This document shows, in pieces, positions 3,001-12,038 of a stretch of 64,000 nucleotides of DNA (positions within the stretch are counted from its first letter, which is position 1; each line of letters starts with the position of its first letter). The translations under genes and the position numbers were made by a program. The DNA lies in IMG/VR virus record IMGVR_UViG_3300017763_003980; one strand, 5' to 3'. Below the pieces are notes generated by a model. The model had not been told where the DNA came from, did no database searches, and saw only the letters and a list, made by a program, of their open reading frames with translations. The stretch is from a virus (Duplodnaviria; Caudoviricetes).

Positions 3001-4236
3001 ACCATCGTAAGTTACAATATCTCCAATAAGGTATTGTGTATTGTCAACCCAGTCACTTTTCCATCTGTGTCCTGGAACAAGTATTTGCCATTTAGCTGAT
3101 GTATCAGGATATTCTGCATTTGAGTCTGTAATACAAATATAAAGGTATCCGCCGCTTCTTAATACATCACCTGTATAGTATTGCGTAGAATGATCATATT
3201 CTCCTCTATGCCTGTAACCTTGTTTTAATAATTCCCAATCGCCAGTGTCTTGTAATATACCATTTACACTAGGTACACTATTTAAATTGTTTTGTAAACA
3301 AGTATAAGCGTAGCCGCCATATAGAACAATATCACCAACTTGATACTCTGTTGAACTTGCCCATAATAGTTCGTATCCAAATCCTGGAAGCCAAACTGCC
3401 CAATATGAACTTGCTTCATCAGTTCTAAATAATGCATTAGCAGTGTGATGTACTAAACATTTCCATATTGTTTCGCCGTATTTTACAAGATCATTTTTTC
3501 TATATCTAGTAGCAGTAACCCATGTGCCTTTATATTCAAATCCGTCTATTACCGTAGTCCATCTAGCAGAATCTGCTTCTAGTCCTAATGAAGCATCGGC
3601 ATTTGAAGTATGTCCTACTGTACATCTATAAACAATACCATTGTAACGTACAACATCATCAACTCTATATCTAGTTCCTGCTTCCCAGTCTGTACGCCAA
3701 TTATCTGAACGTGTAACTATTTCCCATTTTGCTTGATCTGCTTCTAGTCCGTTGGCTTCATTTTCAGCTGTATGCTTTTCTATACATCGATATGTAATAC
3801 CGTTATATGTTGTAACATCACCTAAATCATAAAAATAACCAGCGGACCAAGTGTTTACCCAGTTGTCTGTGGTTGCAACTAAAGTCCATTTGTCATAGTC
3901 AGTATGAACACCTTGAGATGTAACAACATTAGAAGTATGCGAAGTAACACATCTGTAAACATATCCTTCCCATTTTACTATTTCTCCTACACTATAAAAT
4001 GTAGAGTTTGACCAGTCTCCTCTCCAAACAAATCCGTCTAGCATTAGTTCCCATTTAGGATTTGCATGATTTAGATCTGTATAAAATCCTGTAGAAGAAA
4101 CCTGTGAAGTATGACCAATTATACAAACATAAGCTTTACCTTGATAATATACAATATCATCTTTTCGGTATACTGTTGCAGCATTCCAGGCGTTTTTCCA
4201 TCTAAATCTAATTCTATCTAAGTTAAATTCTGCCAT
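1..4236 (-). CDS. Large virion fibre/spike protein, >1412 aa, runs off the window start (absent from ORF track)
   Basis: ATG at 4236 (MAEFNLDRIRFRWKNAWNAATVYRKDDIVYYQGKAYVCIIGHTS). Frame open at all spot-checked points down to position 1. N-terminal W-x(4-5)-Y-x(3)-DIV-x-Y-x-G-x2-Y-x-C-x3-H repeats (CBM5/12-like), then YVAPSG...APFKTIKYA and beta-helix-like sequence. Confidence 0.8.
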   Translation of the reverse strand, partial: MAEFNLDRIRFRWKNAWNAATVYRKDDIVYYQGKAYVCIIGHTSQVSSTGFYTDLNHANPKWELMLDGFVWRGDWSNSTFYSVGEIVKWEGYVYRCVTSHTSNVVTSQGVHTDYDKWTLVATTDNWVNTWSAGYFYDLGDVTTYNGITYRCIEKHTAENEANGLEADQAKWEIVTRSDNWRTDWEAGTRYRVDDVVRYNGIVYRCTVGHTSNADASLGLEADSARWTTVIDGFEYKGTWVTATRYRKNDLVKYGETIWKCLVHHTANALFRTDEASSYWAVWLPGFGYELLWASSTEYQVGDIVLYGGYAYTCLQNNLNSVPSVNGILQDTGDWELLKQGYRHRGEYDHSTQYYTGDVLRSGGYLYICITDSNAEYPDTSAKWQILVPGHRWKSDWVDNTQYLIGDIVTYDGSAYYCIQRHTGSESDNRPDLDIENTNENYWELMLAGIDGNVLTTDGDLRVRDATQTTRLPIGAPGATLKVDASGNSTWGQFGPVSKVFYVAPSGLDSDSNGTTVNAPFKTIKYACDYINQDWANRAPATIFVTAGSYSEIIPISIPKETTIVGDELRSVTIQPNAGLEANNMFYVSNGGGVRNLTLQGLIGTLGSQNAYGTKRPTGGAFISLDPGTGPADTSVHITSKSSYVQNVTTFGTGCVGIKIDGSLHNSGNKSIVANDFTQIISDGIGVWALNNGRTEIVSIFTYYNYIGYLSSDGGKIRATNGNNSYGTFGSVAEGFDATETAITGTVNNRALDPTANALTDNVNMILALEYKNAGTTNVASSSSVNFGGQGANAAATYQEVRDGGVYEVRLTDPGDSSAAGGNNFQFKLNSAQDGGPTTITLAASDTDGTNVKYQGLRVFIKEGLGVGQYGFIASYDPASKIAQVSRESDGQPGWDHINPGWPNVTDMTTATRYTLEPRVTFSDHTYTATTGTAPSSSNWEHVIWYPAGGCFVAFTGSSASNIQSSHSTDGITWSTPVNRFSNRKVKKLLSDTNGSRILVVTDTFDGTTPTGSIYSFDVAAKSHANNLAYITSSDFTNLSNLSGAANKEGSQGTVFTTDSHQLTTTTNLNTTTVVTPSGASSGTHKYTKVAHGGGVGHASNGTFVAVNVGSAGGVAYSTDNGATFIQLDDDGSGTRLPKDYDDVIFGNGKFVAIQNANDSTGLTKTAISFDGITWYHHSITGATDYDKFVYGGGTFMGVSAGSNNQLIKSQEGAVWRLNSDDSTNYLTSDTEDWADAAYSPTLQKWSIVAVNSTNFNVISGWGAKPFARAVVKSDKVNEFFIYEPGSQYSSAPTVSVYDSQSTVNSTQVARIGDGVLPQPVFSERGISYITATASISGSGYADSFQIGPTLRLSNISLVPSPGDNLVINGINDVDYKVSTIEEQSGSGPYDITITISPTLGRAESPVHGEAIT

Positions 4237-9949: not shown

Positions 9950-10399
9950 TTATGCGTCTTCAGTGAAGTCTGTATCGTCAGTACCTGATTTAGTATCATC
10001 ATCACCAGCTTCTTCAACTTGTACTGCACCGTCTGCGCCTGCAACTGTAAAGTTCCAAGAAATACTTGTACCGTCTAGTGCGTTTGAACCAGTAGCTGAA
10101 GGTTGCTTTACAGTAACTTTTCTACCTGCAATTTTAGAAACACCGTATGTTTCATCATCATCACCTTTTACAGAAATTGTCATTTCTGTGCCAGTAAGTG
10201 CAGCTGGTAGTTTACCAGTTACAAGTGTGCGATCATAGCTTCCGCCATCTTCTGTTGCACGTACTCTAAACTTCTTGCTACCAAGTTGTTTTACAATATG
10301 TCCTTCAACAACTGCTGATCCGTCATGAAAGTTAACTTTAATTTCGTTTCCGCTTGCTGTTGGTGTTCCGAAAAATCTTTTATTAATTGGTCTTCCCAT
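9950..10399 (-). CDS. Putative virion structural protein (149 aa)
   Basis: AAGGAG SD; preceded by a late promoter motif and structured leader; lies just downstream of the capsid gene. Confidence 0.6.
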   Translation of the reverse strand: MGRPINKRFFGTPTASGNEIKVNFHDGSAVVEGHIVKQLGSKKFRVRATEDGGSYDRTLVTGKLPAALTGTEMTISVKGDDDETYGVSKIAGRKVTVKQPSATGSNALDGTSISWNFTVAGADGAVQVEEAGDDDTKSGTDDTDFTEDA

Positions 10400-10494
10400 T
10401 TGTTTTCTCCTTAATAAGTTGACGTTCTAGGTCTACGGGGTTGGTTCCCCATAAGTCCTCATCTAGAGGACATCCTCTTGACATAGTATTTATC
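10400..10494 (-). promoter_or_regulatory. Late promoter GATAAATA (10487-10494) and structured leader
   Basis: Hairpins GTCCTC-TAGAT-GAGGAC and TATGGGG-AACCAA-CCCCGTA ahead of the SD. Confidence 0.5.
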
Positions 10495-10503
10495 ATTAGT
10501 AAC

Positions 10504-10536
10504 AAAAGAAAAAGGCCCGCTTGTGGCGAGCCTTTT
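10504..10536 (-). terminator. Intrinsic terminator
   Basis: AAAAGGCTCGC-CACAA-GCGGGCCTTTT followed by TCTTTTG. Confidence 0.8.
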
Positions 10537-10751
10537 AATATAAGGTGATAGGTTGGACTTCAGAATACCAACAACCTAGGCTTACAGTCTGTCTGATAAT
10601 ACCTAAGCACCTCGCATCGAAAAGTTACTTTCAAAACCTGCATCTTCGTGTCTCCACGCTCATACAGTGCCACTACAGCTACGAGTCAAGTTCAGGACCT
10701 GCCATCCCTCTTCCTTGCACTATCGTAAGTTAAACCGTCATCTAACTTACT
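10504..10751 (-). ncRNA. Candidate stand-alone structured non-coding RNA (~250 nt; paired core 10547-10724)
   Basis: Own sigma70-like promoter and terminator; end-pairing GATAG/CTATC; several stems with G-U pairs valid only on the minus strand; GAGA tetraloop; no convincing ORF. Confidence 0.6.
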
Positions 10752-10757
10752 GTATAC

Positions 10758-10785
10758 ATAATAGCATCTTTGTAGTAGTTGTCAA
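10758..10785 (-). promoter_or_regulatory. sigma70-type promoter TTGACA-N16-TATTAT with extended -10 TG
   Basis: Minus-strand TTGACAactactacaaagatgcTATTAT, just past the capsid terminator. Confidence 0.65.
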
Positions 10786-10794
10786 CCACTTTTT

Positions 10795-10837
10795 TAAAAA
10801 AAAGTCAAAAAAATAGGCCCCCTAAAGGACCTATTTT
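10795..10837 (-). terminator. Intrinsic terminator after the major capsid gene
   Basis: AAAATAGGTCC-TTTAG-GGGGCCTATTTT followed by long T runs. Confidence 0.8.
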
Positions 10838-10862
10838 AATCTCGTATATTACTAAAGTAATA

Positions 10863-12038
10863 TTAGCTAAAGCTAACGTTACCTGAAGTAATAGCAACAG
10901 CGCCGAGGTAATCAGCAGCGTTACCAAGAGACGAAGCAGTATTTGATAATTCAATATACCCGTATCTTGTCATAAAGCTTACTGTTGGCTCAAATGTGGA
11001 CGGATCCAGCACAACGCCTGAGCTCATTAGCGGAATGTATGGGCAATAGAATGCTGCCGCATCTGATTCGCTTGAACCTTTATAACCAACAAGTACGTTA
11101 GCATTGTCAGCTGCATATGTGTTTACATATACTTTCATAGCGTTGTTCAAAGTACCAACCATCTTAGTGTTAGTTGGAGCTTCGAATGAACCTTCAGTTG
11201 TTCTTGCGAACGCTGAAGTTGTAGCACTCTGCAGAATTGTAAGTGCAAATGGACTTACAACTGCCCAGTTACCTGCGCCTCTACGTGTACGCTGAGCGAT
11301 CTGGTTTGATACTCTGTTAATTTGAACAGCTAAAGCAGCATGCTCGTCACCAACAAAAGTAGCAGTACCTGATACAGCAGCTTGGTCATATGTTTGACCT
11401 GCTGAGCCAGCTAGTGTGTTTAAGCTTGCAAGTACCTCTTGATCAATTTCAGCGGTAATTTCTTGTGCTAAAGCAGCCATAATTTCTGCTTCAACGTCAA
11501 TACCGTGCATTGATTGAGCGTCTTGAGCCGCTTCAAAAGTCCAGCGAGCTGATAGCTTTCTGGTTTTTGCTTCGACTGTTTGCTTTAAGATTTGGATTGA
11601 TAACTTGTTACCAGCCGCACCTTCAAGTACTGCTGTGTTATCAGCTTTACCTGTTGAAGTGTTACCGGAATAAGCTTCCGCAATCTTAAATGGTGAAAGT
11701 GCTTCTTCACCAGCAGTAGCGCCTGAAGCGCCTGAGCCTGCTGTATCAGAGTAGCGTACTCTCAATGTGTGGATTTGACCCACAGGACCAGTCATAGGCT
11801 GAACACCAACTAATTCGTTAGCAATAACGGTTGGCATTACACGTCTGATGACGGGTAGGATAACTCTGTTAAGAGTTGCGACATTACCGGCGGATGTTGT
11901 TCCTGCTACAGCTGTCTCAGACAAATACTTGCGAGTATTTTCTAAGGTAGTAGCCATAACGCCTTTTTTGTTGCCTTGAAGGCCTTCCAAAAGTGCAGTT
12001 TTCGTATCCTGCCAGCGACTTTCTAGTAGTTCTGACAT
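10863..12038 (-). CDS. gp23: Major capsid protein (T4 gp23 family)
   Basis: RRVMPTVIANELVGVQPMTGPVG, KTRKLSARWTFEAAQD and FYCPYIPL...FMTRYG are hallmark gp23 motifs. Confidence 0.95.
   Translation of the reverse strand: MSELLESRWQDTKTALLEGLQGNKKGVMATTLENTRKYLSETAVAGTTSAGNVATLNRVILPVIRRVMPTVIANELVGVQPMTGPVGQIHTLRVRYSDTAGSGASGATAGEEALSPFKIAEAYSGNTSTGKADNTAVLEGAAGNKLSIQILKQTVEAKTRKLSARWTFEAAQDAQSMHGIDVEAEIMAALAQEITAEIDQEVLASLNTLAGSAGQTYDQAAVSGTATFVGDEHAALAVQINRVSNQIAQRTRRGAGNWAVVSPFALTILQSATTSAFARTTEGSFEAPTNTKMVGTLNNAMKVYVNTYAADNANVLVGYKGSSESDAAAFYCPYIPLMSSGVVLDPSTFEPTVSFMTRYGYIELSNTASSLGNAADYLGAVAITSGNVSFS

Follow-up and report, generated by a model that had tools for sequence, protein, structure and literature searches.

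The RNAs that come closest to the one considered here form the manA family, held in Rfam as RF01745. In the older literature manA is a riboswitch candidate of cyanophages and Photobacterium, located in the 5' UTRs of their genes (PMC2864571, PMC9964418). Weinberg et al. assigned it a cis-regulatory role, probably that of a riboswitch (Weinberg et al. 2010, PMC2864571), and the Rfam type of RF01745 is 'Cis-reg', a placement that is a contextual label and involves no structural criterion. No manA ligand is named in these two papers (PMC2864571, PMC9964418) and manA goes unmentioned in two riboswitch reviews. More recently, cryo-EM of manA RNAs revealed assemblies made of RNA only, namely a 60-subunit T=1 cage, decamers and octamers, all formed in vitro (Ren et al. 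2026, bioRxiv 10.64898/2026.07.01.735769). The 60-mer was observed for manA_A0F1 and decamers for manA_pho34_A767, manA_67AA and manA_pho_A28C. In these cages, pentamers are joined by L5-L7', L8-L9' or L3-L8' kissing loops and are also held by a contact between the GNRA loop L6 and its receptor in P6' (Ren et al. 2026, 10.64898/2026.07.01.735769). RNA-only multimeric cages are likewise reported for ROOL and GOLLD, two large phage-associated RNAs (Nature 2025, PMC12286853).

The window, i.e. the whole stretch of 64,000 nucleotides of viral DNA that was analyzed, carries on its minus strand a compact RNA gene between the gene of a Gp23-type major capsid protein and the gene of a 149-aa protein (Table 1). 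The original prediction had proposed a non-coding RNA gene at this place, right after the major capsid gene and ahead of the next late promoter. The PF07068 match, the terminator of the capsid gene and the T4-type late promoter GATAAATAC bear out this position. The 149-aa protein had no match in Pfam or PHROG, and no similarity to the gene that follows the capsid gene in Vibrio phage 2.275.O. Its leader is a freshwater-2 RNA that contains the Shine-Dalgarno sequence and the ATG of the gene and lies outside the manA unit. In loci without manA, freshwater-2 stays with this next gene (L003, L016, L028 and L065). A full-text literature search for "freshwater-2" returned only unrelated papers.

Table 1. 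Coordinates, in the window, of the manA-family RNA gene, its structural elements and its neighbours.
Feature	Positions	Strand	Remarks
Gp23-type major capsid protein gene	10863-12038	-	391 aa; upstream neighbour; Pfam PF07068 E 4.6e-99; PHROG 138 E 1.4e-99
Capsid-gene intrinsic terminator	10810-10837	-	12-bp stem and T-run
RNA-gene promoter	10758-10796	-	A-tract; -35 TTGACA 10785-10780; 16-nt spacer; extended -10 TGcTATTAT 10766-10758
manA-family structured RNA	10542-10751	-	P1 hairpin and P2-closed multi-helix core; RF01745, R1, covariation
P1 hairpin	10725-10750	-	10 bp, loop UGACGG; L1 GACG as in the Rfam consensus
Core	10547-10724	-	178 nt; GATAG (10724-10720) pairs with CTATC (10551-10547)
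Loop L5, GUAGU	10672-10676	-	can pair with ACU of L7 (10629-10622)
Loop L6, GNRA tetraloop GAGA	10651-10654	-	stem CGUG/CACG covaries
P8 hairpin, CTTAGGT/GCCTAGG	10575-10607	-	apical loop ACAGA 10592-10588; stem covaries in 5/5 pairs
P9 hairpin, GUUGG/CCAAC	10552-10572	-	11-nt loop L9, UCUG 10564-10561; continues directly into the P2 3' strand
RNA-gene intrinsic terminator	10510-10536	-	11 bp (6 G-C), U-run to ~10505; clear of the fold
T4-type late promoter, GATAAATAC	10486-10494	-	serves the next gene; ATAAATA also in homologues
freshwater-2 RNA (RF02980)	10397-10471	-	5' leader of the downstream gene; 60.8 bits, cut-off 49.9
Downstream gene	9950-10399	-	ORF, 149-aa protein; family unknown

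The RNA is a divergent member of the manA family and thus belongs to a known family. RF01745 matches 10542-10749 over the full length of the model (positions 1-192 of 192) with 46.5 bits under permissive filters, the E-value being 8.8e-9 when the whole 64-kb window is searched with all 4227 families and 9.7e-11 locally. The score lies under the gathering cut-off of the family (55.2 bits), which is a curated annotation threshold and describes no structural feature. Because of this cut-off, a default Rfam scan of the window shows only freshwater-2, and the membership of the window copy therefore rests on E-value, synteny and reciprocal model matches. Five homologues located at the same position exceed the cut-off, with 79.9 bits for L036, 78.6 for L022, 56.4 for L045, 55.7 for L058 and 55.5 for L020. 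With RF01745, the remaining members of the clade to which the window copy belongs reach 34.7-53.8 bits, all below 55.2, so that this whole subclade is missed by standard annotation and has stayed unannotated. A covariance model built from an 11-sequence alignment (hereafter R1) gives 201 bits on the window copy. Built solely from the clade of the window, R1 nonetheless recognizes full length the manA RNAs of P-SSM4 (L087 1022-1215, 29.5 bits, E 3.3e-9) and P-SSM2 (L086 1029-1235, 28.9 bits, E 5.2e-9), at coordinates that agree with Table S7 of PMC9964418. The original prediction could not assign the RNA to a known family and held that a match to an existing Rfam family would remove its novelty. 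The full-length, significant RF01745 match and the homologues above the cut-off supply the family, and the claim of a new one is withdrawn.

The structure itself is well supported. All stems and elements initially proposed were recovered on the minus strand at their predicted places, among them CGTG-GAGA-CACG at 10658-10647, enclosed by CTGTAT/ATGCAG. The minimum free energy z-score against shuffled sequence is -3.27 for the minus strand versus -0.30 for the plus strand. Eleven downstream regions were aligned by MAFFT only, that is, blind to structure (alignment A2), and the RNAalifold consensus comprised 48 pairs in 11 helices. Double changes occur in 27 of these 48 pairs, and 98% of the cells are paired versus 33-40% when the partners are slid. 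With 25 distinct sequences, compensatory double changes are found in 42/48 pairs and 97.1% of the cells are paired (33-44% with slid partners); none of 500 shuffles reached the observed covariation values. The prediction of a structured RNA is thereby upheld. The conserved loops of manA are all matched in the window, i.e. L1 GACG, L5 GUAGU for a GUGGUG-like family loop, L6 GAGA, L7 AGUAACUU and P9 GGUAUUCUGAAGUCC. L6 is GAGA in 11/11 sequences of A2; of the 26 sequences in a wider alignment (A3), 18 have GAGA, seven have another GNRA loop (GAAA or GUGA), and L032 has UAGC. Pairing of the 3' tail ACCUU with GCAAGGAA as a pseudoknot was also considered and rejected, the tail being variable in homologues (CAACAU, CAUAUA, CAUUUU).

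Two other readings of the same nucleotides bear on the fold. The first is a self-cleaving ribozyme related to twister-sister, suggested solely by the likeness that the original prediction saw in GCAAGG and GUUGGU..AAGUCCAAC. No ribozyme family, twister-sister included, was matched by Rfam in the region 10250-10950 even at E <= 10 with permissive filters; the nucleotides in question are accounted for by the manA model as the P2/P3 junction and P9; and the topology differs, as had been conceded from the outset. The likeness was dropped and a ribozyme of this kind is highly improbable. The second is that the region codes for a small protein, in the 27-codon MQVLKV frame of the minus strand or in a 62-codon frame of the plus strand, both of which are open in the window. 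Conservation of the 27-codon frame had been put forward as an explanation that would undo the RNA gene. This frame is broken in every homologue, by stops, frameshifts or the loss of the start codon (25/25 other sequences). The longest antisense ORF shifts in place and length among homologues, from 14 to 62 aa, and the substitutions follow compensatory base pairing and not a codon-like pattern. No small ORF on either strand is conserved among homologues and a coding function is effectively refuted, being the least credible of all the readings considered here.

The RNA is an autonomous gene with a discrete product of ~210-245 nt. Its promoter fits 11/12 positions of the sigma-70 consensus and carries the TG extension, and the transcription start is expected at about A10751, ~1 nt before P1. 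A TTGAC-N17-TAnnnT promoter is found at the same place in all homologous units (23 + 37). In the 23 full-length units, its form TTGAC-N17-T(G)nTATAnT is present in 23/23 and mostly ends 3 nt before the start of the model. An intrinsic terminator follows in 23/23, 30-40 nt after the RNA in 20 of them, its sequence varying while the hairpin is kept, and an ATAAATA late promoter comes after the terminator, again in 23/23. Loci lacking the RNA have 160-220 nt between gp23 and the following gene, and loci carrying it have 440-1760 nt. In two loci (L077 and L015) a tRNA-Gly(UCC) stands between RNA and terminator, ~5 nt from the RNA, in which case the unit makes only RNAs. The original prediction of a self-contained minus-strand RNA gene, with a host-type promoter and a terminator of its own inside a late structural region, is thus confirmed by a unit that was kept throughout the full-length homologues. 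Classical cyanophage manA also lies directly behind a promoter, a perfect TTGACA-16/17-TATAAT. In P-SSM4 a hairpin and ATAAATA follow manA. In P-SSM2 the start codon of an ORF comes 16 nt after manA, with no terminator. Since the promoter of the window copy is of the host sigma-70 type, transcription would take place early in infection and by the unmodified host polymerase.

This arrangement has to be weighed against the riboswitch reading inherited from the literature. According to that reading, the manA fold would bind a metabolite and tune termination at 10510-10536, gating early read-through into the leader (freshwater-2) and the gene of the 149-aa protein. Besides the cis-regulatory rating of manA by Weinberg et al. 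and the Rfam type mentioned above, the succession of promoter, structured RNA, terminator and gene is the classical layout of a riboswitch, the short distance to the ORF in P-SSM2 fits the older cis-regulatory view for that copy, and RNA contigs from two runs (X15 and X19) cross the terminator. In terminator-type riboswitches the order of elements is the same; here, in contrast, fold and terminator neither overlap nor compete for pairing, and an independent promoter stands between the terminator and the gene. Over 19 units, the RNA body is not consistently complementary to the 5' arm of the terminator (mean z -0.23), and folding of the full-length sequence gives the terminator hairpin a probability of ~0.95. 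An expression platform was sought as an antiterminator and rejected on these values. The 5' UTR position implied by the 'Cis-reg' label was discarded as well, the terminator (10536-10510) and the late promoter (10494-10486) intervening between RNA and gene in 23/23 units. The late promoter and leader of the next gene are conserved and persist where manA is absent, and in two loci the first downstream element is a tRNA. At the level of the family, the downstream genes are heterogeneous (PMC2864571), no manA ligand is reported, and manA members form defined multimers without a ligand (10.64898/2026.07.01.735769). Control of the neighbouring gene by a riboswitch is thus unlikely at this locus. 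A closed unit, sometimes including a tRNA, whose neighbouring gene is equipped with a separate promoter and leader speaks against calling manA 'cis-regulatory'.

Metatranscriptomes offer a further view of the unit. Seawater metagenomes from many studies contain DNA identical to that of the window, and six RNA runs contain parts of it. Four RNA runs were examined as assembled contigs, from which strand, ends and level are not readable and in which uncovered stretches carry no weight. Run X16 contains three separate error-free contigs, 10034-10482, 10540-10751 and 10833-11219. The second corresponds to the manA RNA from its predicted start to just before the terminator, and the first ends at the predicted start of the late promoter. 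Run X17 has a contig at 10552-10739. Other contigs, in X15 (10497-10697 and 10685-10836) and in X19 (10461-10680), extend across the terminator or the promoter, so that read-through or DNA carry-over also occurs. As transcript evidence for a discrete RNA, the X16 and X17 contigs are a weak hint.

Taken together, the reading that we regard as probable is that of a divergent manA RNA that is an autonomous early transcript and a trans-acting, self-assembling particle, and not a riboswitch. It builds on the observed fold, family kinship, promoter/terminator unit and loop covariation. In the corresponding mechanism, a strong host sigma-70-type promoter would start the RNA ~1 nt before P1 and the non-overlapping intrinsic terminator would end the transcript ~40 nt after the closing stem. 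The next gene, served by a late promoter and a freshwater-2 leader of its own, would not be controlled by the manA RNA. The RNA would instead act in trans as a folded particle, copies of which may join through L8-L9, L5-L7 and the GNRA loop L6 into closed multimers based on pentamers.

The loops expected to make these contacts vary in a concerted manner. Helix numbers are used here in the order of the hairpins and were assigned independently of the figures of Ren et al. In the window, CAGA in the apical loop of P8 can base-pair with UCUG of L9. Complementarity of 4-6 nt between the L8 apical loop and the centre of L9 is kept in six compensatory variants (given as L9/L8), namely UCUG/CAGA in the window and UCAU/AUGA, UCCU/AGGA, UCUC/GAGA, UCAC/GUGG and AUCAG/CUGAU elsewhere in the clade. 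The pairing of L8 with its own L9 fell behind permuted partners in only 4/20000 trials by duplex energy and in 61/20000 by run length, in controls that ignore sequence relatedness, and kinship inflates such tests. In a second subclade (L045, L058, L020 and L036) the apical L8-L9 match is only ~3 nt. The consensus of classical manA displays the same complementarity, between CUGU in L8 and ACAG in L9. Similarly, L5 GUAGU or GUGGU tracks L7 ACUA or ACCA across homologues, with L011, L077 and L015 as exceptions; the window L5-L7 pairing amounts to 3 bp. This natural variation of L8-L9 and L5-L7 fits the interfaces published from cryo-EM, and would fit a contact within one molecule and one between molecules alike. 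It can be viewed as independent evolutionary support for the interfaces of the 2026 preprint.

The ambivalence of covariation leaves room for an autonomous RNA acting as a monomer, for example as a decoy or sponge for a host or phage protein, L8-L9 and L5-L7 then providing a pseudoknot-like intramolecular compaction. The evidence for autonomy serves this reading equally well, a possible manA pseudoknot was drawn by Weinberg et al. (PMC2864571), and P8 and P9 are neighbours only 2 nt apart. In the cryo-EM structures of five manA members, however, the same loops are engaged in intermolecular contacts (10.64898/2026.07.01.735769). Moreover, P8 is ~13 bp long but P9, stacked on P2, only 5 bp, which would hold the two loops at very different heights above the junction and make an intramolecular contact awkward. 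A monomeric function is accordingly unlikely. Returning to the self-assembling particle, its most specific form is that in cells the early RNA forms RNA-only cages, based on pentamers, via L8-L9 and L5-L7 and acts in trans; we put this forward tentatively, as a possibility that we hold to be less probable than its opposite. Assembly in cells, like the early timing, belongs to the conditional part of the explanation, and so does any downstream role such as the sequestering of a host or phage factor. If true, the cage could enclose or sequester such factors, or tRNAs, and the manA family would consist of phage genes for RNA nanocompartments and not of riboswitches.

The distribution of the element was traced from the capsid gene and from the RNA. 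Relatives of the capsid protein in IMG/VR number in the hundreds at 83-96% identity, and among 81 sources R1 detects the element behind gp23 in 26. IMG/VR was also scanned with the invariant 14-mer of the clade, the 80 resulting loci being filtered by R1; 45/80 were confirmed, and the 35 unconfirmed ones are probably due to chance. Among the confirmed IMG/VR copies, 29 lie after gp23 and the rest in other genomic contexts, and the promoter is present in all confirmed full-length copies (37/37). Some IMG/VR copies have further structured modules before the terminator. BLASTN of the region and of its best homologue gave no match among 50,697 cultured-phage records; no cultured model among them carries this manA clade. 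The nearest cultured capsid proteins are those of Sinorhizobium phage Phosso (70% identity), Vibrio phage 2.275.O (68%) and PA5oct (66%), jumbo phages in which only ~100-120 nt follow the capsid gene. A search of Syn9, PA5oct, Phosso and Vibrio phage 2.275.O with RF01745 was without match, as was the control, which deprives this negative of weight.

The phage that carries the RNA is an uncultured jumbo phage from the sea whose capsid is of the T4 type; it is not a cyanomyovirus. A related contig of 210 kb is 60% complete according to CheckV, which therefore corresponds to a genome of roughly 350 kb, a size that applies to related IMG/VR contigs and not to the window's own genome. Among five large related contigs, manA is present in one (L039). 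Glutamine riboswitches are located between gp23 and manA in some related contigs, and one related contig encodes a permuted tmRNA of alpha-proteobacterial type. The manA family thus extends well beyond cyanophages into a widespread lineage of marine jumbo phages.

Compared with the manA RNAs of the T4-like cyanophages P-SSM2 and P-SSM4, the window RNA has the same nine-helix architecture, i.e. the P1 hairpin with its GACG loop, the closing stem, P3, the P4 branch with P5, P6 and P7, then P8 and P9. Both have the loops L5 GURGU, L6 GNRA and L7 AAC and the P9 motif GGUA...UCC, both have complementary L8 and L9, and both have a sigma-70 promoter directly upstream, perfect in classical manA and 11/12 in the window copy. 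Contrary to classical manA, the window sequence is divergent, with its whole clade under the 55.2-bit cut-off; the RNA directly follows a capsid gene in a carrier that is no cyanomyovirus; and it is always closed by a strong intrinsic terminator, the next gene having its own late promoter, hence it is no 5' UTR. As for the cages of Ren et al., they were seen in vitro with other manA members. Their interface loops (L5-L7', L8-L9' and the L6 GNRA loop) are also those of the window RNA, and in its clade L8-L9 and L5-L7 are kept by compensatory change.

Other phage RNAs of this kind are the small stable RNAs C and D of T4 (species 1 and 2), which are co-transcribed with the T4 tRNA cluster and whose function is unknown. 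These are stable non-coding RNAs of a T4-type phage, made in one transcription unit with tRNAs; in the window itself, no tRNA adjoins the RNA. ROOL and GOLLD are often found beside tRNA genes, and in the window's clade a tRNA-Gly is co-transcribed with the manA RNA in two loci (L077 and L015). Unlike manA, they are several hundred nt long, with unrelated folds and in other Rfam families, and the Rfam scan gave no ROOL or GOLLD match in the window. Nevertheless, ROOL, GOLLD and manA are all phage-borne, non-coding and self-assembling RNAs, the assembly of manA being known from other members in vitro.

In the window as in four related loci, the 5' leader of the next gene after the capsid gene gp23 is a freshwater-2 RNA (coordinates are collected in the table). 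In every one of these five cases a T4-type late promoter (G/TATAAATAC) lies immediately upstream of the motif, and the Shine-Dalgarno sequence and ATG of the following gene are comprised within the RNA itself. Freshwater-2 is kept at the locus both with and without the structured RNA manA. This suggests that the motif is a late-mRNA leader in this jumbo-phage lineage.

The distance from gp23 to the next gene amounts to 380-1960 nt in six related loci without manA (L003, L016, L028, L035, L053 and L065), and the site after gp23 appears to be an insertion hotspot for cassettes. In some related contigs, glutamine riboswitch aptamers are placed after the capsid gene and before the manA promoter.

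The manA unit itself can be extended at its 3' side. In L077 and L015 (contigs also designated L107 and L093), the manA RNA is followed, after about 5 nt, by an inserted tRNA-Gly(UCC). Since this tRNA sits between manA and the terminator that both share, the unit constitutes an RNA-only operon. Some other copies contain an additional 100-240 nt, hairpin-rich and ORF-free, between manA and the terminator or late promoter. Among these stretches, a long hairpin of about 100 nt is common to L096 and L154, and no Rfam family matched those of L096, L154, L135 and L118. The sequence shared by L011 and L142 begins with ATAAATA.

The viral contig L096 bears both this manA clade and a permuted tmRNA. 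The latter may hint at Alphaproteobacteria as hosts; alternatively, it may be a tmRNA carried by the phage.

RNA features at the compared loci
Feature	Locus	Coordinates	Remarks
Freshwater-2 (RF02980)	window	10397-10471 (-)	5' leader of gene after capsid gene
Freshwater-2 (RF02980)	L003	4160-4235	
	L016	4887-4971	
	L028	4263-4336	
	L065	4351-4433	
Glutamine riboswitch (RF01739)	L020	3972-4021	47-55 bits in the three loci (cut-off 35)
	L036	3733-3780	
	L058	4166-4213	
tRNA-Gly(UCC)	L077	3990-4063	
	L015	3999-4073	
Hairpin-rich stretch	L096	~3905-4140	
	L154	(-)	downstream of manA
	L135, L118		likewise
~186-nt sequence shared with L142	L011	4198-4385	between manA and next terminator
Permuted alpha-proteobacterial-type tmRNA	L096	12888-13275	RF04321, 118 bits; RF01849, 98 bits
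PSSM4_169.1 (annotated hypothetical ORF)	L087	1085-1258	P-SSM4 record 164884-165057

In the classical manA locus of cyanophage P-SSM4, the ORF PSSM4_169.1 is placed within the manA RNA (record 164829-165014) and is probably a spurious gene call.
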